A DNA stretch of 62,700 nt from Candidatus Altiarchaeales archaeon WOR_SM1_SCG (GCA_001723845.1 MCBE01000110.1:1-62700), one strand, 5' to 3'; positions 1 through 34,323 are shown, counted from the first letter of the stretch. A program made the numbers and translations. The notes: a model not told the origin generated them from the sequence alone.

Positions 1-3000
1 GGATGCGATTGTTTTGTTCATTGTCCAGTTGAATGCCGGGACGAAACTTGTAGAATCGTGGGTAAAACTCCCGTTCGTCAAATACCCGCTCACAGTATTT
101 CCATGTGCAGACCTAAGCTTCAGTAAAGTCATATCACTATCGGTTACATTTATTACTCCCGTCCCCGTTCTTTTAAACTCCGTGGTAATATTGTGTGTCC
201 CGTAGCTGACATTGAACTTAACAGGTTGTGTCCCGGTCACGCCTTCATCGCCAATGGTGTCAAGTGATATTATTTCTTCTTCTAATATTACATTATCGTC
301 AACTTTAATCCTGATCCAGACTTCGTTTGGTACACCATCATCAGTTTCTTTTTTAACATTCACGGAAGTCAGCAAAACCAACTCCCTGCGAGGGGCAGAG
401 GTATTGAAATATTGAAGCACGCCACCCACATAAGTATCGCTGGCAAATGAGAAGTCCGGAACATTAAATTTAACCGCAAGCAGGGAAGTTGGCACAGGCA
501 CCCATATTTCACAGCTGATGTTGATCTGATCGGGTGATGTGTCTTCAGCGGATGTGACATTGAATACCGCCCAGAAACTCCCGTTAGTGGTGTTAAGGCA
601 TGTGAATTTAACGGTAGAATTCTGGTCGTGCGTCATGTTAGCGACAGTCCAGTTGCTTGATATAATCGTACAATTCCCAGTAGAGCAGTTGACGGTAACA
701 TTCGTGTTGTTTCCAAGGGATGTTAAATCAGCATACCCCGTCAGGTTCCCGCCGTTAATCGGTCCCGAACCAATATTAAGGTTTGACTGGTTCCACGAGA
801 TAGTTACACCCGAAATATTCAGGCAGCAGTCCCTTGTGTAATAATCGGAATAGGTATTGCTGCCGTCAAGGTCTATTGCCATTGCCCTGAAATTAACGCA
901 GTCCTGCCCCGAAAAATTTGATGTGTCCCATGAAAGTGTTGAATCCTCGGTGTGGTTTCCAATAACCGTCCACTGCTTACCGTCTATTGTCACCCAAACA
1001 CTTGTGTAGTTGATCTCATCTATTGTTGTTTCATTATACCAGTCCATATAAACCGCCCTTATCCTGAAGTCCTGTTTTGAGGAATTCTGCCATGCTGAAA
1101 GTATTCCTGCGTCGGTTGTCGTGAGAGTAAAGTTATGATGGGTTGTATTCAGCCCGTCTCCGGTGTATGTCTCATTCAAGCCGAATGTTCCGATAGTAAC
1201 AAAGTCGGTGCCGTTCCACATATCAAGCTCAATGTCAGGGTCGGTTGTTGACTGCTGAACGGATGCCGAGGGGTTATATGAAGAAACCTCAACCTTAACT
1301 GAAATGTTATCTATGCTGTAGTAATCGCTGTTCACATCAGTGTAATTTGTGTAGGATGTGTTTGTTTCGTTTGATGCTCCGCCTGAAGCCGGAGTAAAAG
1401 ATGCTGCCACCCTTACCAAACGATTGACAGTTCCCGTAAAAGTAGAATCTAATGATGCTTCTCCGCTTGCACCCCGAAGTTCTGCAACAGCGAATTGTGA
1501 AGAAGCATCCGTAAAGTCCCACAATTCAACTTGACCTTGTCCGTGCGCCCAAGAACCAGTATTTCCCTCTTCTGCTGCTGAAAATACCCATGCATCATTA
1601 GAAGGACTTAATGTATTTGTAATTGTAGCGCCAACTGTTTGATAAGTTCCGTCTGTGGCTTCAGGAGGACCTTGATTCACACCAATATATTCTGCAGCAA
1701 AGGCATGGGCGTCTAATGTGCTGACTGGGCTGATTGTAATGGATATTGTATTGGCACCGTCAGACGGAAGGTCATCTTCGAGTATATACCAGATTTCTGC
1801 TCTGTTGGCATACCCCGCGGCGACTGTGCTGTCTTCAACAGCTTGGGTCATTGCCTGACCGCCATAAGTTATAGCTGTTATGTCATTAATACCGTTGTTT
1901 TCTGCACCAACATAAACAACAACAATCCTATCAGAACCAGAAACAAGGGTATGTAAAAATGATAATGGCGAGGCTGAACTTGAACCACTTGTATCAGTTC
2001 CTACTTTTGTGATGGTGCTGCCTCCACCTCCACTTCCCGCCATGCTTACATCACTCGTATTCTGAACGGTTGTCACATTCTGAAGTGCCGCCTCAATAAC
2101 ATAAGTAATATTATCCCCATTAGCGTCTGTTGAGCCGGAGGCGTTTATCTCAACCGTGCCTGATGTGGTTATGTTGCAGTCAGAGGAGCCGTCAAATGTT
2201 ATGTTTGTCGGGGTTGTCGGGGGGGATTGTATAAATTCACAGCTTACATTAATCTGATCCGGTGTTGTGTCCTCATCTGAAGTAACATTGAACACCGCCC
2301 AGAAACTCCCTGCTGTGCTGTCATTGCAGGTGAACTGGACAGGCGACTGCTGCCCGTCTGACATGGAGGTTACTGTCCAGTTGTGCGTTATCGTGCCGGT
2401 GTTCCCTGCATTACAGTCCCCTGAATCACAAGTAACATTAACATCTGTGTTCGCGCCTGTTGAATTAATATCAGCAGAACCGGTTAAATTGCCAGCACCC
2501 TGGTATCCCGAACTTAAGTTGAGGGTTGACTGGTTCCATGCTACCGCGCTTACAGATGGTCGAATTGCTATCGTATTTCCAGCCCAAGCCGAGCTGGCGC
2601 TTAATGTATGTTGTCCCGGGTTTTCTGATGCTGCATTAAGTTCCCTCCGTGCGGATGCCACTTCTGCTGAAGCAGTGCCGCCGCCGCTGGATTGAGTAAA
2701 TACGCTATTGCCGTAGTTTGCAGGATAACTACTAACTGTTGCTGTTGAAGAATAACCTAAATAAGCAATCCATAGAGTATCGGCAGGTCCCCATGCCGGT
2801 GTTACAGCAGGCAGGTCTGGAAATTGAGTTGTAGCCTGAGCTCCCGCCCCAACAGCAACACCGTTGGTGATTGAGCCGTACCAGCTTGCTGCGCTTATCC
2901 TGTAAACCTGCGCCGCTGCTTCTTCGTTAGCAGAAGTTTGAAAATTAACCGTTGTTCCGCCTTCAGTGCCGTCAGAAATTTTTGCATAAATTGAAGCACG

Positions 3001-4005
3001 TACACGGCTATTAATTTCAACTGTTGTAGAAAGAAATGTCCAACCCCCGGGTGTTGCTACAGTTGCGCTGCCATCATTAGTAAATAAAACAAGCAGTAAA
3101 TCCCCGCTGGTTACTGTTGCAGGCATATTAACATTGTGAACTGTTGTGCCTGGAGTGAATGGAGTGGCTGTAATTGAGAGGACTTGCGAGAATGGATCAA
3201 TAATATGGTCAAACTCAAGATAAGCCGATGAATCATTATCATAATTTTTAATCCTTAAATCAAAGGTATCGTGGCTTCCAATCATTCCGGTTAAATAAAT
3301 TTTATAATATTTTGTTCCGGTGATTATCGGGAATTCCGTTATTTTCTCCGTGCTGTTGAAGTAATAGACCTCAACAGTTGTGTTCAAACCCCGGATATTT
3401 CTCGGGTAAATTGTGATATCATTTTTAGAGGTTAGATTCTTCTCAAAAGTAACTCTAACATATTCTCCTTCATAGATCGGTTCTGACCATATACCATCCA
3501 ATGCTTTAACCTCTTCAAAGATGTCTGACACCGGCGTTCTGTTTGCGTTCAGGTGCAGGGCTTTTGTTGCAAGAATAAAGGCATCGTTATTTGCATACTC
3601 AACATCCTCGCCGAACCTGAACTTTAGATGGTGTTTTCCTGCCGAAAGAACCTTACCTGTCTCCGTTCCCGTTTCACTGCACTCGTAATCCCTGATTAAA
3701 ATTGAATTATTAATTAATTCGTAATTTAAGGTTTCATCCCCGCACCTGACTTCAAGGAACATTAAATCTTTATTAAATTCGGTTCCGTTAACGGCGGTAA
3801 TCCACAGGTCAGCGGTTCCGGTTGTGTTGAACATGACCGTCCATGTTCCTCCGACCGCCGGGTATTCCTGCGGGTTTTTGATTGTGAGGTCTGCTTCTGC
3901 CGCGGGAGTGCCTGATGTTACATAAAGGGCGCACGCTAACGCTGCGAAAAGCAAAAACAATCCGGTTACTATTACCGTCTTATTGTGGGTTGGTTTTTGG
4001 GTCAT
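1..4005 (-). CDS. Large exported surface/adhesin-like protein, N-terminal >=1335 codons (3' end lies beyond the left edge, so it is absent from the ORF track)
   Basis: Own translation of the minus strand in the frame of ATG 4005-4003 gives MTQKPTHNKTVIVTGLFLLFAALACALYV... The frame was open wherever I checked it (around 3660, 3240, 2340, 60). Residues ~35-135 (PQEYPAVGGTWTVMFNTTGTADLWITAVNGTEFNKDLMF...GKHHLKFRFG) match the 148-aa ORFs upstream. An internal duplicated ~100-aa module ends GSFWAVFNVTS(D/A)EDT(T/S)PDQIN(V/I)SCE near 2230-2530 and 500-800. Confidence 0.75.
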   Translation of the reverse strand, partial: MTQKPTHNKTVIVTGLFLLFAALACALYVTSGTPAAEADLTIKNPQEYPAVGGTWTVMFNTTGTADLWITAVNGTEFNKDLMFLEVRCGDETLNYELINNSILIRDYECSETGTETGKVLSAGKHHLKFRFGEDVEYANNDAFILATKALHLNANRTPVSDIFEEVKALDGIWSEPIYEGEYVRVTFEKNLTSKNDITIYPRNIRGLNTTVEVYYFNSTEKITEFPIITGTKYYKIYLTGMIGSHDTFDLRIKNYDNDSSAYLEFDHIIDPFSQVLSITATPFTPGTTVHNVNMPATVTSGDLLLVLFTNDGSATVATPGGWTFLSTTVEINSRVRASIYAKISDGTEGGTTVNFQTSANEEAAAQVYRISAASWYGSITNGVAVGAGAQATTQFPDLPAVTPAWGPADTLWIAYLGYSSTATVSSYPANYGNSVFTQSSGGGTASAEVASARRELNAASENPGQHTLSASSAWAGNTIAIRPSVSAVAWNQSTLNLSSGYQGAGNLTGSADINSTGANTDVNVTCDSGDCNAGNTGTITHNWTVTSMSDGQQSPVQFTCNDSTAGSFWAVFNVTSDEDTTPDQINVSCEFIQSPPTTPTNITFDGSSDCNITTSGTVEINASGSTDANGDNITYVIEAALQNVTTVQNTSDVSMAGSGGGGSTITKVGTDTSGSSSASPLSFLHTLVSGSDRIVVVYVGAENNGINDITAITYGGQAMTQAVEDSTVAAGYANRAEIWYILEDDLPSDGANTISITISPVSTLDAHAFAAEYIGVNQGPPEATDGTYQTVGATITNTLSPSNDAWVFSAAEEGNTGSWAHGQGQVELWDFTDASSQFAVAELRGASGEASLDSTFTGTVNRLVRVAASFTPASGGASNETNTSYTNYTDVNSDYYSIDNISVKVEVSSYNPSASVQQSTTDPDIELDMWNGTDFVTIGTFGLNETYTGDGLNTTHHNFTLTTTDAGILSAWQNSSKQDFRIRAVYMDWYNETTIDEINYTSVWVTIDGKQWTVIGNHTEDSTLSWDTSNFSGQDCVNFRAMAIDLDGSNTYSDYYTRDCCLNISGVTISWNQSNLNIGSGPINGGNLTGYADLTSLGNNTNVTVNCSTGNCTIISSNWTVANMTHDQNSTVKFTCLNTTNGSFWAVFNVTSAEDTSPDQINISCEIWVPVPTSLLAVKFNVPDFSFASDTYVGGVLQYFNTSAPRRELVLLTSVNVKKETDDGVPNEVWIRIKVDDNVILEEEIISLDTIGDEGVTGTQPVKFNVSYGTHNITTEFKRTGTGVINVTDSDMTLLKLRSAHGNTVSGYLTNGSFTHDSTSFVPAFNWTMNKTIAS

Positions 4006-4007
4006 GC

Positions 4008-5447
4008 TTAAGTTTTTGATTTTTCAAACATATTTTCACAATCTTTTTGACGCATTTTTTGACGCATTTTTGACGCATCTTGCGTCAAAAGTGAATATTT
4101 TAATTTTCTTTTTCCGGTGTCCGTGCTTTTTAAAACACCCTTTTTAACTAAATTCACCAGGTCTCTTGAAGCCGTGTATCTTGATACTTTATTAAGTTCC
4201 CTGTACTCCTTATTACCCATACCACCCTGTTTTAAAACATAGTTTACGCCCGCTATTTGTCTCTCGTTCAATCCGAGCTTTTTAAGATTTTCAAGTAAAG
4301 GAGGTAATCTAAAAACTATGACAAAATCTCCCGCTATAATTTTAAACTCCGGTTCCGGTAAACCATATCTGTTGCATTCCCTTATAATATCATTTGTTCC
4401 TGTTCCAACCTCCTCTATGTATTTAATCCAGAATAGTCCCCTGGCTAATAAAGGATTGCGGGGGAATGATTTGTGCGGCTTTCTTAAATCATCAAGAGTT
4501 AAAGGAGAAATTAAAGTCCCGGGGTTCCATATTTCAATCCGGTCATCAAAAACCCTGACCTGAACCTTAGAAGGATTCTCATAATCCCTGTGAACAACGG
4601 CGTTTGTAATTGCTTCCCTTATTGCCCATGGAGGGTATTGATACTTTTCAGTTCTTTGAACACCTTTTTCAGCAGGGAAAACTGATTTTTGTATATTTCT
4701 CAAAACAAATTTTTCTGCCTCATTAATTTGCTCAATAATATTTCCTTCAATAACCTGGAAATCAATGAAAGGTTTGACTGGTTCATCTCCTTTAAATCTG
4801 ATACATTTAATTTCTGACTGGATAAAGAAATCCTGCGGCAGTTTTCCAAACAAAAGAGCAGCTGCGTTAGTCAGTTTTCCATCCTGTGTTAAGTTCAATT
4901 TCATCAATGCTTCCTCAACGGATGTATTTTCCAGGATATTAAGCCCCCTTTGTATTCTCGCTTCTCTTAAAAACCACCTCACAGTTTTCTCATCAATATC
5001 ATCCGGACCTGCTTCTTCAGAGATTTCGGAACCCCATGATCTGCTCTTCTTTTCTATGATAATCCTCTCAATCTCATCGGGAGGAATTATCACATTTTCG
5101 GTTCCGATTCTCTTGTATGCGACCCCGTCCAGGTAATAGAGCCTGTTTATTCCCCCTTCTATCCCGACTTTAATGATATTCTTTTTGCATGCTCCAAGAA
5201 CCGTGATTTCCGGGCTTACTTCCGGCTTTATCTTCTGCCTTATTTTCTGTGATATTGACCTTAATGTGGAGTCAGAGACATCCTGCCCGATTACTTTCCC
5301 TTCATGGATTCCAAAATACAGCCCCCCGCCCCTGTGGTTCAAAAACCCACATACTGCCTTCAGACCCTTCTCTAACTGAGCCGTTGATTTCTTGAATTCT
5401 ACCTTCTCGGATTCACCGTATTTTAGTAATTCATTTATTTCATTCAT
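4008..5447 (-). CDS. COG2865-type putative regulator R1: AlbA_2/Schlafen-like N-domain + HATPase_c_4-like domain + C-terminal wHTH
   Basis: 479-aa ORF. ESEKVEFKKS...LKAVCGFLNHRGGGLYFGI marks the AlbA_2-type N-terminus. REAITNAVVHRDY...VRVFDDRIEIWNPG...EEVGTGTNDII...GLPEPEF marks the HATPase_c_4-type domain. LNERQIAGVNYVLK...YRELNKVSRYTASRDLVNLVKKGVL marks the wHTH. The stop lies 2 nt from the adhesin ATG. Confidence 0.8.
   Translation of the reverse strand: MNEINELLKYGESEKVEFKKSTAQLEKGLKAVCGFLNHRGGGLYFGIHEGKVIGQDVSDSTLRSISQKIRQKIKPEVSPEITVLGACKKNIIKVGIEGGINRLYYLDGVAYKRIGTENVIIPPDEIERIIIEKKSRSWGSEISEEAGPDDIDEKTVRWFLREARIQRGLNILENTSVEEALMKLNLTQDGKLTNAAALLFGKLPQDFFIQSEIKCIRFKGDEPVKPFIDFQVIEGNIIEQINEAEKFVLRNIQKSVFPAEKGVQRTEKYQYPPWAIREAITNAVVHRDYENPSKVQVRVFDDRIEIWNPGTLISPLTLDDLRKPHKSFPRNPLLARGLFWIKYIEEVGTGTNDIIRECNRYGLPEPEFKIIAGDFVIVFRLPPLLENLKKLGLNERQIAGVNYVLKQGGMGNKEYRELNKVSRYTASRDLVNLVKKGVLKSTDTGKRKLKYSLLTQDASKMRQKMRQKDCENMFEKSKT
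4045..4090. repeat. Phased short repeats: TTTTTGACGCA x3 (spacing 12 and 11 nt) followed by the inverted TGCGTCA
   Basis: GACGCA at 4049, 4061 and 4072; TGCGTCA at 4081-4087. They lie inside the 3' end of R1 (encoding KMRQKMRQK). Confidence 0.7.
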
Positions 5448-5890
5448 TCTTTTTTGAGGACATAATAAATATTAGGATTATGAGTTTGTAAGCCGAACCT
5501 GAACTTTAGATGATGCTTTCCTGAAGTAAGAACCTTACCTGTCCCCGTTCCCGTTTCACCGCACTCGTAATTCCCGACGAAAATTGAATTATTAATTAAT
5601 TCGTAATTTAAGGTTTCATTCCCGCACCTGACTGCGACGAACATTAAATCTTTATTAAATTCGGTTCCGTTAACGGCGGTAATCCACAGGTCAGCGGTTC
5701 CGGTTGTGTTGAACATGACCGTCCAGGATCCGCCGACCGCGGGGTAGGACTGGGGGTTAATTATCGTGATATTCGCATCCCCGCCGGGCGGGCTTTCTGA
5801 CGCAATCGGAAGAGCGCACGCTAACGCTATGAAAAGCACGATTAGTCCGGTTCCGGACAACGCCTTAATTCGGGTTGTTTTTTGTGTCAT
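5444..5890 (-). CDS. Small exported protein s1 (148 aa): a duplicated copy of the adhesin N-terminal domain
   Basis: The ORF has a hydrophobic N-terminal segment (ALSGTGLIVLFIALACALPIA) followed by one beta-rich domain homologous to residues ~35-135 of the 1-4005 protein. Its stop overlaps the R1 start by ATGA (5444-5447). Confidence 0.6.
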   Translation of the reverse strand: MTQKTTRIKALSGTGLIVLFIALACALPIASESPPGGDANITIINPQSYPAVGGSWTVMFNTTGTADLWITAVNGTEFNKDLMFVAVRCGNETLNYELINNSIFVGNYECGETGTGTGKVLTSGKHHLKFRFGLQTHNPNIYYVLKKE

Positions 5891-6090
5891 GATTTTTTTG
5901 GTTTGGATTTTGATTTTTTGGATTTTTGATTTTCTCTGTTTTTTATCAGGTAATTTATCAAGTAATTTGATTTGAGGTTTCAGATTTTTGAAACCGCTGC
6001 AACTTCTGCAACCGCTAAAGTTAAAGCGACCATTATCGGCATGCTTTGCCGTTCCCTGCTTATTTTAATGTTTTGCGTCATTTTTATCGT

Positions 6091-6120
6091 TTATGTCCTG
6101 TTATGTCCTGTTATGTCCCC
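6091..6120. repeat. 10-nt tandem repeat TTATGTCCTG x3
   Basis: Read directly from the sequence. Lies in the R2-s1 intergenic region. TTTTGCGTCA motifs flank it at 6071-6080, 6150-6159 and 6161-6170. Confidence 0.8.
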
Positions 6121-6189
6121 TTTATTAGTTGCTTATTTATCCTTTATTGTTTTGCGTCATTTTTGCGTCATGTTGACGCGAAAGTACAG

Positions 6190-6233
6190 CCGTTAATCGT
6201 CCGTTAATCGTCCGTTAATCGTCCGTTATGTCC
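6190..6233. repeat. 11-nt tandem repeat CCGTTAATCGT x3 plus a partial fourth copy, spanning the R2 stop codon
   Basis: Read directly from the sequence. Units at 6190-6200, 6201-6211 and 6212-6222, then the degenerate CCGTTATGTCC. Confidence 0.8.
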
Positions 6234-7587
6234 GTAAAGTGTAATATGTGCCTCTTCCCTTTCCTGTCAAATAAATGATTCCCTTGTTGACCATATCCAA
6301 AAGGTCCTCGTAGGCAACGGTTTTTTCAACATTACAAATTTGACAGTAGGTTCTCCTATTTATTTTGCCTTGTTTTTTCAGGTATTCTATTGCTTTTCTT
6401 TGCCTTTCATTCAAATTAAATCTATCAATGTAGGTATCAGCATACTTATTTCTCCATATCGTTACCACAAAACACCCCATCTTTTCTTCAAATTTTGGCT
6501 CAGGCAAGCCATTGTCTCTGCACAGCATTATTACATCAGTAGTTCCGCCTCCCGCGTCTTCTACATAACCTGCCCTGTAAAGCTGCCTGAATATCAATGA
6601 ATTTTTTGGTATTGATGGGTGCGGCTTTTTTAAGTCATCTATTTTTAATTGCCCTGGCAAAGAGCCGGGATTCCATATCTCAACCCGGTCAGGAAATATT
6701 CTCACCTGAACTTTGGAAGGGGACTCGTAGTCCCTGTGAACAACTGCATTGACAATACATTCCCGTACAGCATCTTCCGGGATTTCATACGGGTTCTTTG
6801 CCGATGCTTTTCCGGGTTCAAGCCATAAAGGTCTGTGAATATTCTCCAATACAAATACTAGTGATTTATCAACCTGGTCAAATAAAGTTCCTTCATAAGA
6901 GCAGTAACTTGTATAGGGCTTCACAAATTCCGTTGTTGGGAGTACAATGCATTTAACTCCGGATTGAATAAATTCCGGTTCCTTGCTGAAAAGCAGGACT
7001 GCAGCATTTGTTAATCGCCCGTCTTTTGATAATTTTATTCTCATTAATATGTCATCAGCTGGTGTGTCTTCCGGGATATTCATCCTTTTTTGTCTTATTC
7101 CTTCTTTCAGGAACCACCTCACTTTCTCCTCGTCCATATCTTTAAAATCAGCGTCCGGAGAGATTTGCTTATCCCATTGATTCTTCCGCCTTTCCATGAT
7201 AATTCTTTCAAGTTCTTCAGGAGGGATCACAGAATTCTCGGTTCCGACTCTTTTGTAGGCAATCCCGTTTAAATAGCAGGGTTTATTCAGCCCCTCTTTT
7301 ACCTTTACTTCAATAACCTTTTCTTTGCCCGTTCCAAGAACCGTGATTTCCGGGCTTATCTCAGGCTTTATCTTCTGCCTTATTTTCTGTGATATTGACC
7401 TCAAAGTGGAGTCCGAAACCTCCTGCCCGACTACCTTCCCTCCGTGGATTCCGAAATAAACGCTGCCTCCCTTGTGGTTCAAAAACCCACATACTGCCTT
7501 CAGACCCTTCTCTAACTGAGCCGTTGATTTCTTGAATTCTACCTTCTCGGATTCGCTATATTTTAGTAATTCATTTATTTCATTCAT
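6226..7587 (-). CDS. COG2865-type putative regulator R2 (AlbA_2-like + HATPase_c_4-like + wHTH)
   Basis: 453-aa ORF. The first ~85 aa are almost identical to R1, R4 and R5. Motifs: RECIVNAVVHRDY...VRIFPDRVEIWNPG...EDAGGGTTDVI...GLPEPKF, then LNERQRKAIEYLKK. Confidence 0.8.
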   Translation of the reverse strand: MNEINELLKYSESEKVEFKKSTAQLEKGLKAVCGFLNHKGGSVYFGIHGGKVVGQEVSDSTLRSISQKIRQKIKPEISPEITVLGTGKEKVIEVKVKEGLNKPCYLNGIAYKRVGTENSVIPPEELERIIMERRKNQWDKQISPDADFKDMDEEKVRWFLKEGIRQKRMNIPEDTPADDILMRIKLSKDGRLTNAAVLLFSKEPEFIQSGVKCIVLPTTEFVKPYTSYCSYEGTLFDQVDKSLVFVLENIHRPLWLEPGKASAKNPYEIPEDAVRECIVNAVVHRDYESPSKVQVRIFPDRVEIWNPGSLPGQLKIDDLKKPHPSIPKNSLIFRQLYRAGYVEDAGGGTTDVIMLCRDNGLPEPKFEEKMGCFVVTIWRNKYADTYIDRFNLNERQRKAIEYLKKQGKINRRTYCQICNVEKTVAYEDLLDMVNKGIIYLTGKGRGTYYTLRT

Positions 7588-8030
7588 TCTTTTTTGAGGA
7601 CATAATAAATATTAGGATTATGAGTTTGTAAGCCGAATTTGAACTCCAGATGGTGCTTTCCTGAAGTAAGAACCTTACCTGTCCCCGTTCCCGTTTCACT
7701 GCACTCGTAATTCCCGACGAAAATTGAATTATTAATTAATTCGTAATTTAAGATTTCATTCCCGCACCTGACTGCGACGAACTCTAAATCTTTATTAAAT
7801 TCGGTTCCGTTAACGGCGGTAATCCGGAGGTCTGCGGTTCCGGTTGTGTTGAACATTACCGTCCAGTTGCCGCCGACCGCGGGGTAGGACTGGGGGTTAA
7901 TTATCGTGATATTCGCATCCCCGCCGGGCGGGCTTTCTGACGCAATCGGAAGAGCGCACGCTAACGCTATGAAAAGCACGATTAGTCCGGTTCCGGACAA
8001 CGCCTTAATGCGGGTTGTTTTTTGTGTCAT
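7584..8030 (-). CDS. Small exported protein s2 (148 aa), paralogue of s1
   Basis: Differs from s1 at only a handful of residues. ATGA overlap with the R2 start (7584-7587). Confidence 0.6.
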   Translation of the reverse strand: MTQKTTRIKALSGTGLIVLFIALACALPIASESPPGGDANITIINPQSYPAVGGNWTVMFNTTGTADLRITAVNGTEFNKDLEFVAVRCGNEILNYELINNSIFVGNYECSETGTGTGKVLTSGKHHLEFKFGLQTHNPNIYYVLKKE

Positions 8031-8069
8031 GATTTTTTTGGTTTGGATTTTGATTTTTTTTGATTTTAT

Positions 8070-9554
8070 TTATTGATTTATGGTATCATTTGCAGTATCA
8101 TTAAACTTGTGATGCCCTGTTTTTGCGGAACTGATTTTGTTATCGTCCGATTTATCGTCCGATTTATCGTCCGATTTTGATACATAATATGTTCCGGGAC
8201 CCGATGATTTGCTTACAATAATCTTTTTATTTACAAGATTTACAATATCTCTATGAGCCGTATCTTTTGCAACACCGGATAATTTTCTATATTCCTTATT
8301 TGTAATCTTTCCTTTAATTTGAAGATATTCAATCGCTTTCTTCTGCCTTTCATTTAATTCAATCCCGGCAGTATCAATAACCCTTTCTACATTTGGATTC
8401 CTGAACCTTATCACAAACCATCCTAGTCTCTCTTCAAATTCCGGCGGCGGGAGTTCCCATTTTTCTAAATCTTCCCGGATTCTCAAAAAACCGGTTCCAC
8501 GTTTATCCATGATGTCCAGATTATTGAAAACGCCTGCAATAATCTTGTTTCTGGTTTCAGGCGTGTAGTCATCGTTTTTGATGTTATCAACCGTAAGGGG
8601 TCTCAATAATTCGCCGGGGCTTAAAATCTCAATAAATGAGTTGTACATCCGGATTAAAATTGTTTCCTGCTTATGCCAATCCCTGTGAACCAGTGCATTA
8701 ATCGTAGCTTCTCTTAAGGCATTAATCGGGTACTCCGTCCGGACTTCTGTTTTAAATCCGACAACCCTTGCTGGTGTTCGCATGTTTTTCAGGAAGAATT
8801 TCTCCGCCTGCTTTATAATTTTAAATAATGTTCCCCTTAAATCTTTTCTGTCAAGCCATTCAACTCTCGTATCTCCGATATACCGATCTGCTTTTACTTC
8901 GCTGTGGTGCAAATCACGGTAAGGGTCTGCCCCAAACAACAGGATGCCTGCAAGCGTAGGCGTTAATCCGCCGTTATCTTTGACAATGAAATGTTCTTTT
9001 TCCATTAGCTCAATTAAGTAGTCATTAGTTAATTGTTTTGTTAATTTACTCTTTTTCAGGTATTTTTCCACTGCTTTTAAATCCAGATCATCAAGGGTTG
9101 CATTCTCAACCGGATAAATGTCCTGTGATTTTGAAGAGCCTTCCCGGTATAACCTTGCGATTTCCTCTTTGTTTGCAGGCATGCTGGATGAGCCGATCCT
9201 GACTCTCGGATTGTGTTCCCCGCGGACAAAGTACGGCGTGTCCTTACCTTTCGGGCAGTGAATTACTATGAAATCTTTGTTCTTGTATTTCACGAATTCG
9301 ATTTCAGGCTCTTCATCCAACCTGCACCAGTGCCTGATTATTTGCGTAAACTTGTTCTCCGTTTTCTGTGCATCGGATAAGCCAACCGGTTTTCTTGTCT
9401 CATCCGCAACACCGATGATGATTTTACCGCCCCTGCCGTTGTATAGGGATGTCACTAACTGAGCGACTTTATTTGATTCCGGTAGTTCCAGCTTAAAGTC
9501 TATGTCTTTGTTTTCTTTTTCTTCAAGCAATTTTTCAAACTCTTTTTCTTTCAT
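8070..9554 (-). CDS. COG2865-type putative regulator R3 (divergent paralogue)
   Basis: 494-aa ORF. The N-terminus differs from the others (DIDFKLELP...LYNGRGGKIIIGV) but keeps the AlbA_2 pattern. Motifs: REATINALVHRDW...IRMYNSFIEILSPG...DKRGTGFLRI...ELPPPEF, then LNERQKKAIEYLQ. The C-terminus carries the KSDD x3 repeat. Confidence 0.75.
   Translation of the reverse strand: MKEKEFEKLLEEKENKDIDFKLELPESNKVAQLVTSLYNGRGGKIIIGVADETRKPVGLSDAQKTENKFTQIIRHWCRLDEEPEIEFVKYKNKDFIVIHCPKGKDTPYFVRGEHNPRVRIGSSSMPANKEEIARLYREGSSKSQDIYPVENATLDDLDLKAVEKYLKKSKLTKQLTNDYLIELMEKEHFIVKDNGGLTPTLAGILLFGADPYRDLHHSEVKADRYIGDTRVEWLDRKDLRGTLFKIIKQAEKFFLKNMRTPARVVGFKTEVRTEYPINALREATINALVHRDWHKQETILIRMYNSFIEILSPGELLRPLTVDNIKNDDYTPETRNKIIAGVFNNLDIMDKRGTGFLRIREDLEKWELPPPEFEERLGWFVIRFRNPNVERVIDTAGIELNERQKKAIEYLQIKGKITNKEYRKLSGVAKDTAHRDIVNLVNKKIIVSKSSGPGTYYVSKSDDKSDDKSDDNKISSAKTGHHKFNDTANDTINQ
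8142..8177. repeat. 12-nt tandem repeat ATCGTCCGATTT x3 (in frame; encodes KSDDKSDDKSDD of R3)
   Basis: Read directly from the sequence. Shares the CGGACGAT core (minus strand) with the 6190-6233 repeat. Confidence 0.8.
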
Positions 9555-10024
9555 GGGTTTTTCTTTTTGAAATTTTTATTTTGAGATGAGATAAAAGTAT
9601 ATTTTTCGGCGTACTCAACAGCATCGCTAAATCTGAACTCCAGATGATGCTTTCCTGCCGAAAGAACCTTACCTGTCCCCGTTCCCGTTTCACTGCACTC
9701 GTAATTCCCGACGAAAATTGAATTATTAATTAATTCGTAATTTAAGGTTTCATTCCCGCACCTGACCCCAAGGAACATTAAATCTTTATTAAATTCGGTT
9801 CCGTTAACGGCGGTAATCCACAGGTCTGCGGTTCCGGTTGTGTTGAACATGACAGTCCAGGATCCGCCGACCGCGGGGTAGGACTGGGGGTTAATTATCG
9901 TGATATTCGCATCCCCGCCGGGCGGGCTTTCTGACGCAATCGGAAGATCGCACGCTAACGCTATGAAAAGCACGATTAGTCCGGTTCCGGACAACGCCTT
10001 AATGCGGGTTGTTTTTGGAGTCAT
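9551..10024 (-). CDS. Small exported protein s3 (~157 aa from MTPKTTRIKALSG; the ORF track extends it to 10096)
   Basis: Same domain as s1 and s2 but a different C-terminal junction (EFRFSDAVEYAEKYTF...). That junction follows the adhesin sequence (KFRFGEDVEYANNDAF) for ~12 further codons. ATGA overlap with the R3 start (9551-9554). The start at 10024 was chosen by alignment with s1 and s2. Confidence 0.55.
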   Translation of the reverse strand: MTPKTTRIKALSGTGLIVLFIALACDLPIASESPPGGDANITIINPQSYPAVGGSWTVMFNTTGTADLWITAVNGTEFNKDLMFLGVRCGNETLNYELINNSIFVGNYECSETGTGTGKVLSAGKHHLEFRFSDAVEYAEKYTFISSQNKNFKKKNP

Positions 10025-10100
10025 GATTTTTTTTTGATTTTTGATTTTTTTTTTGATTTTTGATTTTTTTGTTTGTATATATTTTTCCGACATCAATTTT

Positions 10101-10144
10101 TCGGTTACTTTTCGGTTACTTTTCGGTTACTTTTCGGTTACTTT
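10101..10144. repeat. 11-nt tandem repeat TCGGTTACTTT x4
   Basis: Read directly from the sequence. Lies between the R4 stop (10157) and the s3 start. Confidence 0.85.
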
Positions 10145-10156
10145 TTATTATTCATT

Positions 10157-11524
10157 TTATTTCATGGTGTATTTTGTTGCCCTTCCGACACCAATCTTTT
10201 TAAATATATCTCTTATGAAAAGTTCTTTTATATCAATATGAGCAGTCCTTGCGGACACTTCATTTAATTTCATATACTCTCTTTTGGTTATATTGCCCCT
10301 TTTCCGGGCATATTCTATCGCCCTTCTCTGCCGATCATTCAAATCTAAATCAAAAGATTCAAAATCCTTCGGGGAGAATATAGTCACTATTACACTTGCC
10401 CCCGTGTCTTCTATCTTTGGAAATGCGGGGTGTAATGGATGTGATTCTATTTCATCCATAATCCTGTCCCAGCCCTCGCCCACTTCTTCAACATATCTTA
10501 TTTTATTCAAAACTTTCATTAATACGGGATTTCTGTGAGAAGTTTCTTTTAGAATATTTTCGGGCGTGATTCCCGCAGGAAGGGGTCCGGGAGATTGATA
10601 TTCTATCCTGTCTTCAAAAATTTTGATGATCACCCGGGCGCCTGATGTAGTATAATCTCTGTGTGCAACGGCATTCACCAGAAGTTCCCTCAGAACAAAT
10701 GGGGGGTATTGGCTTATATCCTCCCTTGCTAGCTGACCTTCTTTTAAATAAGAATATGTATTGATATTTTTATTTATAAATTCATTGGTCTCATCTATTA
10801 TATCCAAAAGGCATCCCTGAAAATCCCTTATATCCTTGTGTTTGGTCCCGACTTTTTTAGACAGATATACCGCTATTGTAACTCGTGTATTCGGGAAAAA
10901 TTTTTGCGGGTCATTACCAAATAAGAGAACTCCCGCGTTTGTTGGCTTATTTTTATCGCCCGCTGATCTCAAACAATTCAAAGATTTTAGTAAATCTTCA
11001 GATGAAGTGTGGATTTTTCTTTTGATTATGAACTCGTATCTTTCCTTGAACCACTCTGCTTTTTCCCAATCAATATCCCCTAAATTTGCATCTTCACAAA
11101 TTTCAAAGTCCCAGTTCTTTTTTCTTTTATTCAAGATAATTCTTTCTAATTCTTCAGGTGGAATCACTATATTTTCAGCCCCGACTCTCTTGTAAGCAAT
11201 CCCGTTTAAATAGTAGAGTTTATTTAATCCCTCTTTTACCCGGACTTGTATAACCTTCTCCTTGCCCGTTCCAAGAACCGTGATTTCCGGACTTACTTCC
11301 GGCTTTATGTTCTGCCTGATTTTCTGTGATATTGACCTCAAAGTTGAGTCCGAAACCTCCTGCCCGACTACCTTCCCTTCATGGATCCCGAAATAAACGC
11401 TGCCTCCGCTGTGGTTCAAAAACCCACATACTGCCTTCAGACCCTTCTCTAACTGAGCCGTTGATTTCTTGAATTCTGCCTTCTCGGATTCACCGTATTT
11501 TAGTAATTCATTTATTTCATTCAT
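10157..11524 (-). CDS. COG2865-type putative regulator R4
   Basis: 455-aa ORF with the conserved N-terminus. The second half resembles R5: LRELLVNAVAHRDY...IKIFEDRIEYQSPG...VEEVGEGWDRI, then LNDRQRRAIEYARK. Confidence 0.8.
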   Translation of the reverse strand: MNEINELLKYGESEKAEFKKSTAQLEKGLKAVCGFLNHSGGSVYFGIHEGKVVGQEVSDSTLRSISQKIRQNIKPEVSPEITVLGTGKEKVIQVRVKEGLNKLYYLNGIAYKRVGAENIVIPPEELERIILNKRKKNWDFEICEDANLGDIDWEKAEWFKERYEFIIKRKIHTSSEDLLKSLNCLRSAGDKNKPTNAGVLLFGNDPQKFFPNTRVTIAVYLSKKVGTKHKDIRDFQGCLLDIIDETNEFINKNINTYSYLKEGQLAREDISQYPPFVLRELLVNAVAHRDYTTSGARVIIKIFEDRIEYQSPGPLPAGITPENILKETSHRNPVLMKVLNKIRYVEEVGEGWDRIMDEIESHPLHPAFPKIEDTGASVIVTIFSPKDFESFDLDLNDRQRRAIEYARKRGNITKREYMKLNEVSARTAHIDIKELFIRDIFKKIGVGRATKYTMK

Positions 11525-11967
11525 TCTTTTTTGAGGACATAATAAATATTAGGATTATGAGTTTGTAAGCCGAACCTGAACTCCAGATGGTGCTTTCCTG
11601 CCGAAAGAACCTTACCTGTCCCCGTTCCCGTTTCACTGCATTCGTAATTCCCGACGAAAATTGAATTATTAATTAATTCGTAATTTAAGGTTTCATTCCC
11701 GCACCTGACCCCAAGGAACATTAAATCTTTATTAAATTCGGTTCCGTTAACGGCGGTAATCCACAGGTCAGCGGTTCCGGTTGTGTTGAACATTACCGTC
11801 CAGTTGCCGCCGACCGCGGGGTAGGACTGGGGGTTAATTATCGTGATATTCGCATCCCCGCCGGGCGGGCTATCCGATGCAATCGGAAGAGCGCACGCTA
11901 ACGCTATGAAAAGCACGATTAGTCCGGTTCCGGACAACGCCTTATTTTGTTTTGGTTTTTGGTTCAT
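11521..11967 (-). CDS. Small exported protein s4 (148 aa from MNQKPKQNKALSG; the 201-aa track ORF is an upstream over-extension)
   Basis: Same domain as s1-s3. ATGA overlap with the R4 start (11521-11524). The proposed ATG (11967-11965) overlaps the R5 stop TGA (11966-11964) as ATGA. Confidence 0.6.
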   Translation of the reverse strand: MNQKPKQNKALSGTGLIVLFIALACALPIASDSPPGGDANITIINPQSYPAVGGNWTVMFNTTGTADLWITAVNGTEFNKDLMFLGVRCGNETLNYELINNSIFVGNYECSETGTGTGKVLSAGKHHLEFRFGLQTHNPNIYYVLKKE

Positions 11968-13382
11968 TGTTTTTGGTTTCTTGCCATTTTTTCTTGCCAT
12001 TTTTGGCGAGATAGCGTATAATATGTTTTCCTGCCAATACTCTTTTTTTGGATTAAGGCATAATCTATTAATCTCGTTAATTCCCGGTTTGCAGTTCTTG
12101 CAGGAACGTTCAGTAGTTTCTCGCATTCAGTACGGGTTATTGCGCCCGTATTCTGCAAGTACATAAGAACTTTCAACTGCTTCTCCGATAGTTTAACCTG
12201 CTCCATTACTTTCTTCTCAGATTCAAACTTCTCTTTCGTTGAGAATATCTTAACCTCTGTTGTGTAATCATCTGTTGTGATTTTTGGCTGTAATGGTTTG
12301 AGAGGATGCTGTTTATGCTCTTTAATTATCTTATCCCAACCCTCGCCAACTCCTTCAATATATCTAACCCTTGACAGCACGTCTGCTATGATTTCGTTTC
12401 TGGAATGCTGCTTACTGACAATGTTATCAGGGGTTATTCCCGGAAGTAATCCGCCGGGATTGTAATATTCTATTCTATCGTCAAACATCTTTATTATTAC
12501 TTTTGACCCCGTCACCATATAGTCCCTATGAGCAGCAGCATTAACCACCAGCTCTCTGATCGAAAACCACGGGTATTCCGGGATGTCTTGTCTTTCAACC
12601 TGATATGGGAGCAGGCGCCCCATCATCGTAATATGCCCTTTTATATATCTGTCGCATTCGTCTATTTGCCTGAATAGATTACCCTTAAATTCTTTATAAT
12701 CCATCCTTTCGATTCCGATTTCCTTGCCCCCGTATCTCGCAAGAGCGATATAAGCATTTCGGAAAAAATCCTGTGGAGTTTTGCCAAATAAAATAATCCC
12801 CGCATTAGTCGGCATATCCTCTTTTATGCACCCTAACGCCCCTAATAGATTGATATGGCTGCCAACAACCTCTTTCTCTGCATATTTTTCATACCTTAGT
12901 ACAAAAAATTCTCTTACGAAATTCATATCAATGTCGTTCAAACTCGCTTCCTCACAAATTTCAGAATCAAAATGCACTCCTTTTTTCTCTAATATGATTC
13001 TCTCCAGTTCATCGGGCGGGATTACCACGTTTTCGGTTCCAACCCGTTTATATGCAATTCCATCCAGATAGTAAAGTTTGTTCTTTCCTTCTTTTACCTC
13101 AACCTCAATAAACTTCATTCCTCCGGTATCCAAAACTTTAATTTCCGGGCTCATCTCAGGTTTTATCTTCTGCCTTATTTTCTGTGATATTGACCTCAAA
13201 GTGGAGTCCGAAACCTCCTGCCCGACTACCTTCCCTCCGTGGATTCCGAAATAAACGCTGCCTCCCCTGTGGTTCAAAAACCCACATACTGCCTTCAGAC
13301 CCTTCTCTAACTGAGCCGTTGATTTCTTGAATTCTACCTTCTCGGATTCGCTATATTTTAGTAATTCATTTATTTCATTCAT
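11964..13382 (-). CDS. COG2865-type putative regulator R5 (first gene of the array)
   Basis: 472-aa ORF with the conserved N-terminus. Motifs: IRELVVNAAAHRDY...IKMFDDRIEYYNPG...IEGVGEGWDKI, then LSEKQLKVLMYLQ wHTH. Confidence 0.8.
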   Translation of the reverse strand: MNEINELLKYSESEKVEFKKSTAQLEKGLKAVCGFLNHRGGSVYFGIHGGKVVGQEVSDSTLRSISQKIRQKIKPEMSPEIKVLDTGGMKFIEVEVKEGKNKLYYLDGIAYKRVGTENVVIPPDELERIILEKKGVHFDSEICEEASLNDIDMNFVREFFVLRYEKYAEKEVVGSHINLLGALGCIKEDMPTNAGIILFGKTPQDFFRNAYIALARYGGKEIGIERMDYKEFKGNLFRQIDECDRYIKGHITMMGRLLPYQVERQDIPEYPWFSIRELVVNAAAHRDYMVTGSKVIIKMFDDRIEYYNPGGLLPGITPDNIVSKQHSRNEIIADVLSRVRYIEGVGEGWDKIIKEHKQHPLKPLQPKITTDDYTTEVKIFSTKEKFESEKKVMEQVKLSEKQLKVLMYLQNTGAITRTECEKLLNVPARTANRELTRLIDYALIQKKSIGRKTYYTLSRQKWQEKMARNQKQ

Positions 13383-13516
13383 TCTTTTTTATTTTGTAAC
13401 AATTTTAACAAAATTTTAAATTTTTTGTTATTTTTGTTATTTTTGTGTTTTGCTGCCCATCAAAACCCCCGCAGCCCGGCTTTCCGGGTACGGGATAATT
13501 TTTTTTAAAATTTTTG

Positions 13517-13671
13517 ACACGCCCTCCTGTCCCATCATGCAGTTGAAAAGCGTACGGGGAGCTATAACGGCTATGAATGGCTGACTGCCGCATCCGAGGT
13601 ATAGACGCAGGCAGGTTGAATATGACAGCCATTTTTGCCTCTCAACTGCAAATTTTGGTGGAGGGTATGCC
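13517..13671 (-). ncRNA. Candidate structured RNA element L1 (long form of a repeated family), ~135 nt upstream of the R5 start
   Basis: GC-richer patch in an AT-rich spacer. Nested complementary pairs (plus-strand spelling): CCCTCC/GGAGGG, TGCAGTTG/CAACTGCA, AATGGCTG/CAGCCATT. Homologous to 25396-25557 with different but still complementary stems. The minus strand is preferred because the plus-strand A-C mismatch in the CTGCCGCATC/GACGCAGGCAG hairpin becomes G-U on the minus strand. Confidence 0.45.
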
Positions 13672-13688
13672 AATTTTTTTATGAAAAC

Positions 13689-13795
13689 CGCCTCTTTTTC
13701 CCAGATCCATCAAGGGAAAATATAACGGCAATTTAGATGCTTACACGGGGAAGTGTTTTGCAAGATTACCCTGATGGAATTTTTGGTAAGAGACG
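13689..13795 (-). ncRNA. Candidate structured RNA element S1 (short form)
   Basis: Outer stem CTCTT/AAGAG and inner stem CCATCA-GGG/CCC-TGATGG. Conserved GTCCCA-like, AATATAACGGC and TTTTTGGTA blocks. First of three tandem copies. Confidence 0.4.
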
Positions 13796-13828
13796 AATTT
13801 TTTGTTTTTTTGTTTTTTATGAGACACT

Positions 13829-13935
13829 CTGCCTCTTTGTCCCAAATCCATCAAAGGGAAATATAACGGCAAGTTGCTTGAAAACGGGTGAGTGATTTCA
13901 AGATTTACCCTGATGGAATTTTTGGTAAGAGACAG
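13829..13935 (-). ncRNA. Candidate structured RNA element S2
   Basis: Same architecture as S1: GCCTCTTTGTCCCAAATCCATCAAAGGGAAATATAACGGC...CCCTGATGGAATTTTTGGTAAGAGAC. Confidence 0.4.
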
Positions 13936-13961
13936 AATCGTCATCTTTTTTAAATTTAACC

Positions 13962-14068
13962 CTGCCTCCCTGTCCCAAATCCGCCAGGGGAAATATAACG
14001 GCTAAGTTGGTTTAAAATCACGGGGAGTGATTTACATTATCCTGATGGATTTTTTGGTAGGGGGAGGG
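13962..14068 (-). ncRNA. Candidate structured RNA element S3
   Basis: Same architecture, but the outer stem is changed on both sides (CTCCC/GGGAG instead of CTCTT/AAGAG), which is a compensatory change. Confidence 0.4.
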
Positions 14069-14156
14069 TTTTTGTTTTTTTGTTTGTTTTGTTTTTTGTT
14101 TTTTTTGTTTATTGTTTATTTTATTATTTTTATTTGATTGTGATTTTTTTTTATTT

Positions 14157-23537: not shown

Positions 23538-24512
23538 TCATATATAATTTTCACAATATCTCATAATATTGGGGTCCTCGCCATACTCCTTTATCATGCA
23601 ATCACACATTTCGGTGATGTGTGCTGTGTTGTTTGAAACCCCCTTGATCTTGTAATAACATGATGCCCTGTTCCTCCCGGTCAGGTTCCTGCATATCTCA
23701 AATGAAGCGCTTGCATTAATTTCCTTAATCGCCTTGGCGGCGTCTATCTGGCACATATGCGAAAATATATATGAATACCTTTCGGCAGCAAGTGCGCCCT
23801 CGTTACATATATCAAGTGCTTTCCTGTAGTCATATCGAGCAACCTCTTTTGCAACGCCCGGGTAACACGCAAGGCACCCGCCATCTGTATCATTTACGCA
23901 TTCCCTGCACATGAGTGCCGCACCTTCGGAATCATTCCCTGCCATAAATACCGCAGCAGGCGTGTAACAGGAACTATCTTTGATTTTACGGCAAACGGCA
24001 AGCGTTTCATTAACGCCCCTGCGCGCAATAGCATACGCTATGCTTTCATAGCATAACCAGCTGGGTGAGGTAAGGTTACACAGGAAAATAGCGGCATCAC
24101 TATCCGATTTAACAACAACTGACGCCAGTGAAGTATAGCAGTTAAACCATCCTGAAACCATTTTATTGCACAACCCGACGCTTTCATTCAGGCTACTTAT
24201 GTTTTCACCGGTCAGGGTAATCGCTATCTTCTGGAAACAAATACTCCGGTCTGTTTCATTCAGATTACTGCAAACTTCAATTGATTTATTTAAATTCCCC
24301 TGGTAAAAGTAACATTTTGCTCTTTCATCCCATGTTAAATTTTTGCATGAATCGGTTACCTGCTCATCTGAATTTTCACCCGGTGTTTGTAGTTCTACCG
24401 GCTCATGCTGCTCCTGCTCCTGCTGAGGATTGTAATAATTAATTAAAATTAGTCCTGCTGCGGACACCGCTAAAAGCATTACTGCGGTTATCATTTTTGA
24501 TTTTTTATTCAT
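23538..24512 (-). CDS. Exported/anchored Cys-rich repeat protein (324 aa)
   Basis: N-terminal hydrophobic segment, then ~30-aa periodic Cys-containing helical repeats (KCYFYQG, SICFQKIA, FNCYTSLA, WLCYESIAYA, SSCYTPAA, LACYPGVA, ASCYYKI). Its start overlaps the upstream gene stop by 8 nt. Confidence 0.7.
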   Translation of the reverse strand: MNKKSKMITAVMLLAVSAAGLILINYYNPQQEQEQHEPVELQTPGENSDEQVTDSCKNLTWDERAKCYFYQGNLNKSIEVCSNLNETDRSICFQKIAITLTGENISSLNESVGLCNKMVSGWFNCYTSLASVVVKSDSDAAIFLCNLTSPSWLCYESIAYAIARRGVNETLAVCRKIKDSSCYTPAAVFMAGNDSEGAALMCRECVNDTDGGCLACYPGVAKEVARYDYRKALDICNEGALAAERYSYIFSHMCQIDAAKAIKEINASASFEICRNLTGRNRASCYYKIKGVSNNTAHITEMCDCMIKEYGEDPNIMRYCENYI

Positions 24513-30093: not shown

Positions 30094-30215
30094 GATTCTT
30101 CAAATAATATTTTAGTTAATTTTTGTATATATTTTGTACCTGTAATTTGTACCTGTAATTTATTATATATAATCCGTATTTAATCGGTTTTAATTGGTTT
30201 ATGCTTTTTGCAGGT

Positions 30216-31966: not shown

Positions 31967-32008
31967 CAATTTACTAAGCAATTTACTAAGCAATTTACTA
32001 AGCAATTT
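31967..32008. repeat. 12-nt tandem repeat CAATTTACTAAG x3 plus a partial copy, reiterating the last codons and stop of the 138-aa gene
   Basis: Read directly from the sequence. The minus strand reads ...GAA ATT GCT TAG TAA ATT GCT TAG TAA ATT GCT TAG TAA ATT G. Confidence 0.85.
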
Positions 32009-34243: not shown

Positions 34244-34323
34244 TTTATTGCTATTTATATATTGTATTTTATAGAATATATAATTTTTTATTTTATTTTA
34301 TTTTTTATTTATAATTTTGATTT

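Follow-up and report, generated by a model that had tools for sequence, protein, structure and literature searches.

A strain-variable island of Schlafen-type genes in an archaeal adhesin operon, probably shuffled by recombination on reiterated adhesin 5′ ends

Prokaryotic Schlafen (pSlfn) proteins consist of a catalytic Ex4(E/D)xK nuclease fused to varied sensor domains, and HisKinase-HTH (HTH, helix-turn-helix) is their second commonest architecture, accounting for 19.2% of 5,930 proteins (PMC13056530). The pair of AlbA_2 and PF13749 domains has been named 'Schlatpase' and is reported from 60,692 proteins, in most of which an HTH tail is the sole addition (bioRxiv 10.64898/2026.05.29.728809, 2026 preprint), and the Schlafen/GHKL family includes antiviral tRNases (PMC13056530; bioRxiv 10.64898/2026.05.29.728809). 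Slfn fusions protect E. coli via phage-triggered tRNA cleavage, as demonstrated for two fusions other than those with HisKinase; protection was obtained only from a DUF262 fusion and an Ig-like fusion and from no HisKinase fusion, two of which had been picked for a set of eight constructs that lost one unspecified member at the synthesis stage (PMC13056530). Here we describe an array of five genes of this kind, R1 to R5, on the contig MCBE01000110.1 (GCA_001723845.1) of Candidatus Altiarchaeales archaeon WOR_SM1_SCG, the whole of which (62,700 nt) is called the window below. The R genes alternate with four short open reading frames (ORFs), s1 to s4, which repeat the 5′ end of a large adhesin gene, ADH, lying at the end of the array. 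On balance, the locus is probably a strain-variable, recombination-shuffled island of Schlafen genes in an adhesin operon, in which s is a duplication scar and a homology handle.

On the minus strand, the array reads R5, s4, R4, s3, R3, s2, R2, s1, R1 and ADH. All of these ORFs, and the distance of 2 nt between the R1 stop and the ADH ATG, agree with what had been claimed from the sequence alone (the sequence-only reading). The features of the array and its flank, in window coordinates, are as follows.

4005 to 1, minus strand: ADH, 1335 codons from ATG, open at the contig end; 5′ part of the gene for a large exported surface protein
4008–5447, minus strand: R1, 479 aa; Schlafen (AlbA_2), GHKL (HATPase_c_4) and putative winged helix-turn-helix (wHTH) domains by Pfam
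5444–5890, minus strand: s1, 148 aa; ADH 5′ copy with signal peptide, complete Ig-like domain and 15-codon junction tail
5891–6225, minus strand: R2-s1 spacer, 335 nt, with the R2 repeats, further short repeats and a 123-nt stretch of ATPase-cassette type
6226–7587, minus strand: R2, 453 aa; Schlatpase-HTH paralogue
7584–8030, minus strand: s2, 148 aa; ADH 5′ copy with the junction as in s1
8070–9554, minus strand: R3, 494 aa; divergent Schlatpase-HTH paralogue
9551–10024, minus strand: s3, 157 aa from ATG; ADH 5′ copy with a different, later breakpoint
10157–11524, minus strand: R4, 455 aa; Schlatpase-HTH paralogue
11521–11967, minus strand: s4, 148 aa from an ATG overlapping the R5 stop; its own stop overlaps the R4 start
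11964–13382, minus strand: R5, 472 aa; Schlatpase-HTH paralogue and first gene of the array
13383–13473, minus strand: promoter-like module upstream of R5; in the contigs L059 and L108, an 84% identical module stands ahead of the start of an AAA_16 ATPase gene remnant
13425–14156, strand not assigned: conserved left flank, 91–97% identical to the contigs L001, L003 and L058

The window is the whole source contig and ends inside ADH, so that this gene is truncated. The other spacers measure 132 nt (R4-s3) and 39 nt (R3-s2). All genes of the array lie on one strand and its polycistronic transcription is plausible; no run of five or more T was found on the coding strand in any array spacer by an oligo-T count, which was made in place of a sigma-70 promoter/terminator scan, set aside as inappropriate for archaea. 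The window encodes archaeal AglB and RNase J. A search of window positions 1–15,000 against Rfam gave no match at E≤0.1. Most joins of the array are reproduced on independent metagenome contigs: R5/s4/R4 on L058, R4-s3-R3 on L004, s3/R3/s-start on L003 and L006-8, and s1/R1/ADH on L105 and L106. No support for the s2/R2 and R2-s1 joins was found among these contigs.

The s copies share 94–97% DNA identity with one another, differing at 17–26 positions, and 83–87% with the ADH 5′ end, which is far beyond chance. In s3, homology to ADH runs on to ...FRFSDAVEYAEKYTFI, and the tail of s1, s2 and s4 is LQTHNPNIYYVLKKE, which is not adhesin sequence. Five junctions are 4-nt ATGA overlaps of stop and start codons (5444–5447, 7584–7587, 9551–9554, 11521–11524 and 11964–11967), and the array had accordingly been read as an organised, translationally coupled repeat. 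The overlaps do exist, but the 'organisation' is largely one junction copied: the s1, s2 and s4 junctions are copies of a single 45-nt junction, 100% identical, so that the five overlaps represent only three independent junctions. R genes start with ATGAAT or ATGAAA and s and ADH with ATGAC or ATGAA; since both kinds open with ATGA, an ORF entering in the +1 frame stops at ATGA. R5 has no upstream s.

Divergence along the array is mosaic. By sliding identity, the following tracts are homogenised.

5178–5920, minus strand: homogenised tract of unit 1; a ~30-nt leader followed by s1, the junction and codons 1 to ~90 of R1
7318–8060, 11255–11997 and 13113–13382 (R5 head only), minus strand: the equivalent homogenised tracts

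Identity among units 1, 2 and 4 is 83–100% in the tract, through the first ~270 nt of R, and ~40–50% further into R; the R5 head joins the homogenised tract from its start codon. At the protein level, residues 1–90 of R1, R2, R4 and R5 are 84–93% identical and the remainder 26–52%, and R3 is ~27% identical to the other four over the whole protein. The synonymous divergence, dS, is 0.09–0.14 among the s copies and 0.14–0.53 in R codons 1–90 and is saturated past codon 90; the low dS in the R head therefore points to recent exchange and not only to selection. Of the roles that had been proposed for the array, that of a recombination substrate fits these data and those of other strains, which vary in order and content and show chimeric s/ADH copies and swapped R 5′ blocks. 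The spacer between R2 and s1 contains 123 nt (5962–6084) that are 93% identical to the sequence after the ATPase remnant in L108, and this stretch looks like the scar of a lost cassette. Pieces of the AAA_16 ATPase cassette are scattered over the window (5962–6084 and 13385–13473), L108 (484–826) and L059 (1899–1981). Since the promoter-like module of the ATPase now stands before R5 and its downstream sequence in the R2-s1 spacer, a cargo gene would have been replaced behind a shared upstream module.

Contigs of relatives show the turnover more directly. In L001, L003 and L061, a PIN toxin-antitoxin pair and s take the place of the window's R5, and in L001 and L003 homology to the left flank of the window stops ~43 nt before the R5 ATG. 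L058 carries the R4 body under R1-like first ~50 residues, and L059 has the order R1, s′, R2, where the window has R2-s1-R1, with s′ ending 36 nt before R. The neighbours of the s-type fragments or gene starts in L002 and L080 are not R but an AAA_16/nSTAND/BrxC-like ATPase and an FGE-sulfatase protein (the s of L002 precedes the ATPase with a 133-nt gap), and remnants of the ATPase occur in L059 and L108. Adhesin and s sequences are mixed in both directions: the copy after R1 in L107 opens as ADH-type, changes to s-type and finishes as s3, an ADH-type signal peptide is found on the first s of L001 and of L003, and the full-length ADH of L105 bears an s-type patch at nt ~120–200 within ADH-type sequence. 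The s copies themselves decay. In L004, s3 has a frameshifting deletion of 149 nt, flanked by an identical R3 and by an R4 that is 100% identical to that of the window past codon 90. At least six truncation points of s are found, among them those at about codons 75, 100, 112, 133 and 145, of which the ones at ~75, 100 and 112 are the relatives' own breakpoints, and some copies have lost core strands; in-frame deletions occur in P0007, P0010, P0012 and P0014. The expectation that both genes of an s/R module are kept intact in relatives is thus contradicted by the L004 frameshift, the truncation points and the strand deletions.

These data can be joined in the following scheme. The island sits directly before the 5′ end of the large adhesin gene and would historically have lain inside it, and illegitimate joins, at least three times here and in relatives, would have linked a shortened 5′ end of the adhesin gene to sequence upstream of a cargo gene. 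The resulting units of s and cargo would then have been amplified, permuted, deleted and traded through homologous recombination and gene conversion, with two homology tracts as the presumed carriers, the s/ADH 5′ tract and the first ~90 R codons; in some strains the cargo also comprises a STAND-like ATPase or a toxin-antitoxin pair. In this scheme, s keeps its start codon, signal peptide and Ig-like domain because the copies derive recently from a working gene and conversion holds them close to it, and the ATGA overlaps go back to the shared ATGA at the start of R and s and to the threefold copying of one junction.

The assignment of R to its family had been proposed from the sequence and was borne out by a Pfam search, in which R1–R5 exceeded the gathering score both for SLFN_AlbA_2 (PF04326; 62–68.5 bits, cut-off 25.3) and for HATPase_c_4 (PF13749; 66.7–83.3 bits, cut-off 26). 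The nuclease motif Ex4(E/D)xK is kept in all five proteins as ESEKVEFK, ESEKAEFK or ENKDIDFK at residues 12–21, and so is the GHKL motif ExxxNAxxHRD; R1, for example, has ESEKVEFK and EAITNAVVHRD. The C-terminus gives weak wHTH matches in Pfam and PADLOC (HTH_DeoR, TrmB, DIP2311-like_C, SoFic_C and Csa3), of which only that of R3 reaches its cut-off, and barely (21.1 vs 21 bits). PADLOC matches R solely to the Schlafen/GHKL part of models associated with prokaryotic Argonaute (pAgo), because the pair of AlbA_2 and PF13749 is that of the Schlatpase family, and NCBIfam gave no match for R1 and R3. By domain content and motifs, R1–R5 can be classed as new members of a described family, Schlatpase-HTH or pSlfn HisKinase-HTH, formerly COG2865, and by analogy R may act as an infection-triggered tRNA nuclease. 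Homologues of R occur on 148 plasmid records, annotated as 'ATP-binding' or 'RNA-binding domain' proteins. No viral contig was found with R2 as query, and there is therefore no evidence for virus-borne units. Exact-protein look-ups returned no record for R1 and R2; an R3 identical in protein sequence is present on 10 other contigs. The first 100 residues of R2 as query returned only short AlbA_2 fragments with 60–79% identity. The best matches of the R head and of the S domain, the Ig-like domain of s and ADH, include uncultured Methanosarcinales and 'Ca. Methanogaster'. The proposal that the array is made of paralogous conflict modules is thus supported as far as R is concerned, by its membership of a Schlafen/GHKL family with antiviral tRNases, and is not supported for s as a partner.

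The short ORF s encodes a signal peptide and one Ig-like beta-sandwich. Its earlier description as a hydrophobic export segment followed by one beta-rich domain is matched by the AlphaFold2 (AF2) prediction for s1, which is Ig-like, with a core of residues 40–133 at a predicted local distance difference test score (pLDDT) of ~90 in one of five models and a disordered 15-residue tail. No specific fold was assigned to s: Foldseek comparison of the s1 model with the Protein Data Bank gave generic Ig-like sandwiches only, at E≥2e-3. Neither s nor ADH matches any model in Pfam, NCBIfam or PADLOC. ADH begins with a signal peptide and two conserved domains.

3604–3888, minus strand: S domain of ADH, residues ~40–134, Ig-like; hidden Markov model match over residues 7–151
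3196–3585, minus strand: second conserved domain of ADH, residues ~140–270, followed by repeats

The second domain has the consensus ...HLD.NR.FISDIY.EVK.LD..WSE.I...EYVRVTFE.NLT..NDITIYPR..., lacks Pfam annotation, is common to >40 database proteins, and is predicted by AF2 with a pLDDT of 85–97 over much of its length. The S domain was found by phmmer in 1,123 representative proteins; among the best 150 of them, it mostly lies within proteins of 500–7,000 aa, internally, matching query residues ~38–135. It can be regarded on these matches as an undescribed domain family, one that has no Pfam model. S-domain proteins are mostly giant archaeal surface proteins of up to 7,373 aa, from DPANN, Methanosarcinales and other lineages. 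The surroundings of the domain were surveyed at 49 GTDB genome loci and 47 JGI metagenome loci. It lies inside giant ORFs in the 49 GTDB loci (DPANN, Methanosarcinales, Thermoplasmata and Nitrososphaerota) and in most of the 47 JGI loci; short stand-alone forms of s were limited to this organism's close relatives, where they are heterogeneous. The search of related genomes therefore did not uphold s/R as a conserved two-gene module, since the short pair was confined to close relatives. An R gene stands directly upstream of a giant S-domain gene in L018 and L066. Enrichment of R beside such genes was considered and rejected, because the association amounts to ~3 of ~90 loci and two of these, L018 and L066, encode R proteins that are near-identical and may be one lineage.

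At the 3′ end of each R type, before the next s or ADH start, lies a short tandem repeat peculiar to that type, with a unit of 10–13 nt and usually a period of 11 nt.

4044–4090, minus strand: R1 repeats, three copies of ATGCGTCAAAA and an inverted copy, forming the palindrome TTTTGACGCA-AG-ATGCGTCAAAA; inside the R1 coding tail
6190–6228 (region listed as 6150–6228), minus strand: R2 repeats, 3.5 copies of TAACGGACGAT
8140–8177, minus strand: R3 repeats, 3.2 copies of the 12-nt AAATCGGACGAT, encoding KSDD three times
10098–10145, minus strand: R4 repeats, 4.4 copies of AAAAGTAACCG, 3′ of R4
11977–12004, minus strand: R5 repeats, 2.2 copies of a 13-nt unit, in the coding tail

The R4 repeat has 3.4 copies in L058 and L004. 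A degenerate R2-like gene on L036, a contig of a distant metagenome-assembled genome (MAG), encodes a wHTH that is 54% identical to that of R2 and is followed at the same position (9956–9985) by 2.7 copies of the R2-type unit CCGGACGATTA; the wHTH next most similar to the L036 fragment is that of R3, which has CGGACGATAA. This contig is labelled Aenigmatarchaeota, and at 7303–10068 it contains one 922-codon stop-to-stop reading frame that fuses an adhesin N-part, a second S domain and the internally deleted R2-like gene (head and wHTH), followed by another S-domain adhesin gene; the second S domain is interrupted by a Hint/intein-like stretch, as in P0015. Similar repeats accompany R genes of Woesearchaeota and homologues on bacterial plasmids (sites at L110, 1906–1958; L113, 1746–1780; L115, 33–573; L117, 1901–2011), and the view of the repeats as a peculiarity of this array was rejected on that account. 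Under fixed criteria, such a repeat was detected for 13 of 17 R genes, either no more than 250 nt from the stop codon or immediately 5′ of the start codon; against a background of 24 matches in 0.97 Mb (~1.5% per 600 nt), only two of them with period 11, this gives a binomial P of ~3e-21 with a control that is not composition-matched for plasmids. In the literature, no paper describing repeats at Schlafen/GHKL-HTH genes was found. Because their period is that of a helical turn and they are type-specific, the repeats may be cognate iterons for the wHTH; if the 11-nt repeats are indeed wHTH sites, they offer a direct experimental handle on the HTH tail of the family. Perfect 12–13-nt tandem repeats unrelated to R lie between genes or at gene ends at 30133–30161, 31967–32008 and 32230–32264, and this genome may more generally be prone to short perfect repeats at the borders of its genes.

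Several observations weigh against the recombination account and bring in other explanations. The AF2-predicted Ig-like domain is complete and ends exactly at the s1-type junction, all four s ORFs of the window are intact, and the changes among s1–s4 are 19 synonymous versus 22 nonsynonymous, where 23% synonymous would be expected (P=0.001; omega ~0.35). Neutral evolution of s, with dN/dS of about 1, was therefore not found among s1–s4, yet a frameshifted copy exists in L004; the bias suggests either constraint on s or variation imported by conversion from functional adhesin genes, which can account for it. In one relative lineage, each of three deletions preserves the frame and leaves the ORF open to the R start, and no Shine-Dalgarno-like sequence was found upstream of the R starts; like the intact ORFs and the complete domain, this fits a possible role of s as a translated leader. 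In addition, PADLOC calls no complete known defence system in the window, an antiviral role of the HisKinase/HTH class is putative, and assemblies made with short k-mers (k=141) may switch inside identical s tracts, so that some recombinants, e.g. L107, are perhaps artefacts; the PIN toxin-antitoxin variant, the L004 deletion and L058 are independent of such switches. The omega of ~0.35 and the absence of Shine-Dalgarno-like sequence before the R starts, together with the recurrence of 4-nt or 8-nt overlaps in the window, L001, L003, L005, L058 and L108 and the in-frame deletions of P0007, P0010, P0012 and P0014, could mean that s and R form a working two-gene module, in which exported s partners R or s is a leader acting through termination-reinitiation at ATGA. 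This is unlikely, however: the pair is not found outside the close clade in the GTDB and JGI survey, s3 of L004 is frameshifted between intact neighbours, s′ of L059 ends before R and s of L002 precedes an ATPase, relatives have lost core strands of the domain, R5 does without an upstream s, and an exported domain and a cytoplasmic nuclease make improbable partners. Given that no Shine-Dalgarno sequence precedes the R starts, ribosomes translating s as far as R may, speculatively, help R expression in an incidental way, and some residual function of s, such as that of a translated leader, is conceivable.

The R proteins could instead be DNA-binding regulators of the adhesin, each with its wHTH on its own 11-nt repeats; control of adhesin expression had also been proposed from the sequence alone, and the type-specific repeats keep it as a minority view. 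The repeats do lie at every R 3′ end immediately before the next s or ADH start, distant L036 keeps both the R2-type unit and the R2-like wHTH next to an S-domain adhesin, and L018 and L066 have R directly upstream of giant S-domain genes. However, the same kind of repeat accompanies plasmid homologues of R in bacteria with no adhesin nearby, and the repeats therefore belong to R and not to the adhesin; moreover, R beside an S-domain gene is rare, near a rough estimate of chance expectation, and the intact nuclease and ATPase motifs point to an effector rather than a plain repressor, so that a regulatory role of this kind appears quite unlikely. That the s copies are silent donors, rewriting the N-terminal domain or signal peptide of the adhesin by conversion like pilE/pilS, is very improbable: the patched ADH of L105 and the many chimeras would agree with it, but the copies differ by only 3–6% in DNA and hold almost no repertoire, the largest differences between s and ADH fall in the signal peptide, start codons are kept, and large unrelated genes lie between the copies. 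Hardly credible, finally, is a mis-assembly that inflated fewer real units, for which a metagenome-type contig with 447-nt repeats of 94–97% identity would give the occasion, because the five R bodies are unique and mutually ~30–50% identical, the s copies are distinguishable at 17 or more positions, and four junction sets recur in independent assemblies of other samples.

A further reading, likewise unlikely, retains the recombination and adds function to it: the units would be self-contained Schlafen immune cassettes, with a constant RNase head, a swappable GHKL/wHTH body and the body's own 11-nt iterons, and the adhesin 5′ fragments would be retained as functional joints. If so, the joints would give homology for reshuffling across the population, integron-like without an integrase, as well as a translated leader feeding R, and binding of wHTH to the iterons, located before the next s or ADH start, would link what the nuclease is doing with the expression of a surface protein, a possible receptor for viruses.

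Outside the array, three tandem 139-nt units lie at 13675–14085 between a DUF11 giant gene and R5, and also in L001, L003 and L058. Each unit folds as a long hairpin of 27 pairs, and 4 pairs show compensatory changes within just three copies; it has no Rfam match and could be a structured RNA or resemble a miniature inverted-repeat transposable element (MITE-like). Further into the window, a full alpha-2-macroglobulin gene (32450–38646; 1440 aa with MG2, MG3, bait region, TED and receptor-binding domains) stands beside the gene for a 597-aa protein with a Kazal-type inhibitor match. Such a protease-trap pair of alpha-2-macroglobulin and inhibitor is better known from bacteria and animals. An 87-nt tandem repeat (24791–24980; 2.2 copies, 98% identical) lies within an acylphosphatase/coiled-coil gene (24505–25350).

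Few uncharacterised candidate immune proteins of prokaryotes are as abundant as those of the Schlafen/GHKL-HTH type, and the locus is a natural example of how a population may build and reshuffle a repertoire of them, with one nuclease head, many bodies and short-tract exchange. It also indicates that ordinary gene fragments can scaffold the recombination of such a repertoire, here at an archaeal site without obvious mobile-element machinery. With the pSlfn HisKinase-HTH or Schlatpase-HTH proteins, R shares the Ex4(E/D)xK motif, the GHKL N-box, variable C-terminal parts that are thought to be sensors and, with a weakly matched wHTH, apparently the three-part architecture; what differs is the setting, namely an archaeal adhesin operon in which five paralogues stand in tandem, their nuclease heads homogenised and their bodies saturated in divergence. 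Defence islands and hotspots likewise have conserved flanks, here the DUF11 giant gene with its 139-nt repeats and ADH, and strain-variable cargo, here the R types, the AAA_16/nSTAND/BrxC-like ATPase and the PIN toxin-antitoxin pair; unlike them, this locus shows no integrase or other mobile-element hallmark, and its turnover apparently relies on homology between reiterated fragments of a host gene.

The orphan cassettes of cdiA-CT/cdiI and rhs loci resemble the array in that a full gene stands beside tandem partial copies interleaved with diversified genes and homology tracts permit recombination. The fragments here, however, are 5′ ends and precede the full gene, where those of the orphan loci are 3′ ends and follow it, and they are near-identical rather than diverse and without toxin/immunity logic. 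Unequal crossing-over or Campbell-type integration also produces a partial gene plus insert n times over and then the intact gene, along with chimeras among the repeats and strains that differ in copy number, whereas the inserts here are different paralogues and not copies of one segment, so that the array collects diversity rather than amplifying dosage. As in pilE/pilS, partial copies swap patches with a full-length surface-protein gene, but the donors here offer a negligible repertoire, and start codons and signal peptides are present on the cassettes. The array can be placed among known kinds, those of defence hotspots and orphan-cassette arrays, and is new in its shared head, its divergent bodies and its use of reiterated host-gene fragments as joints.

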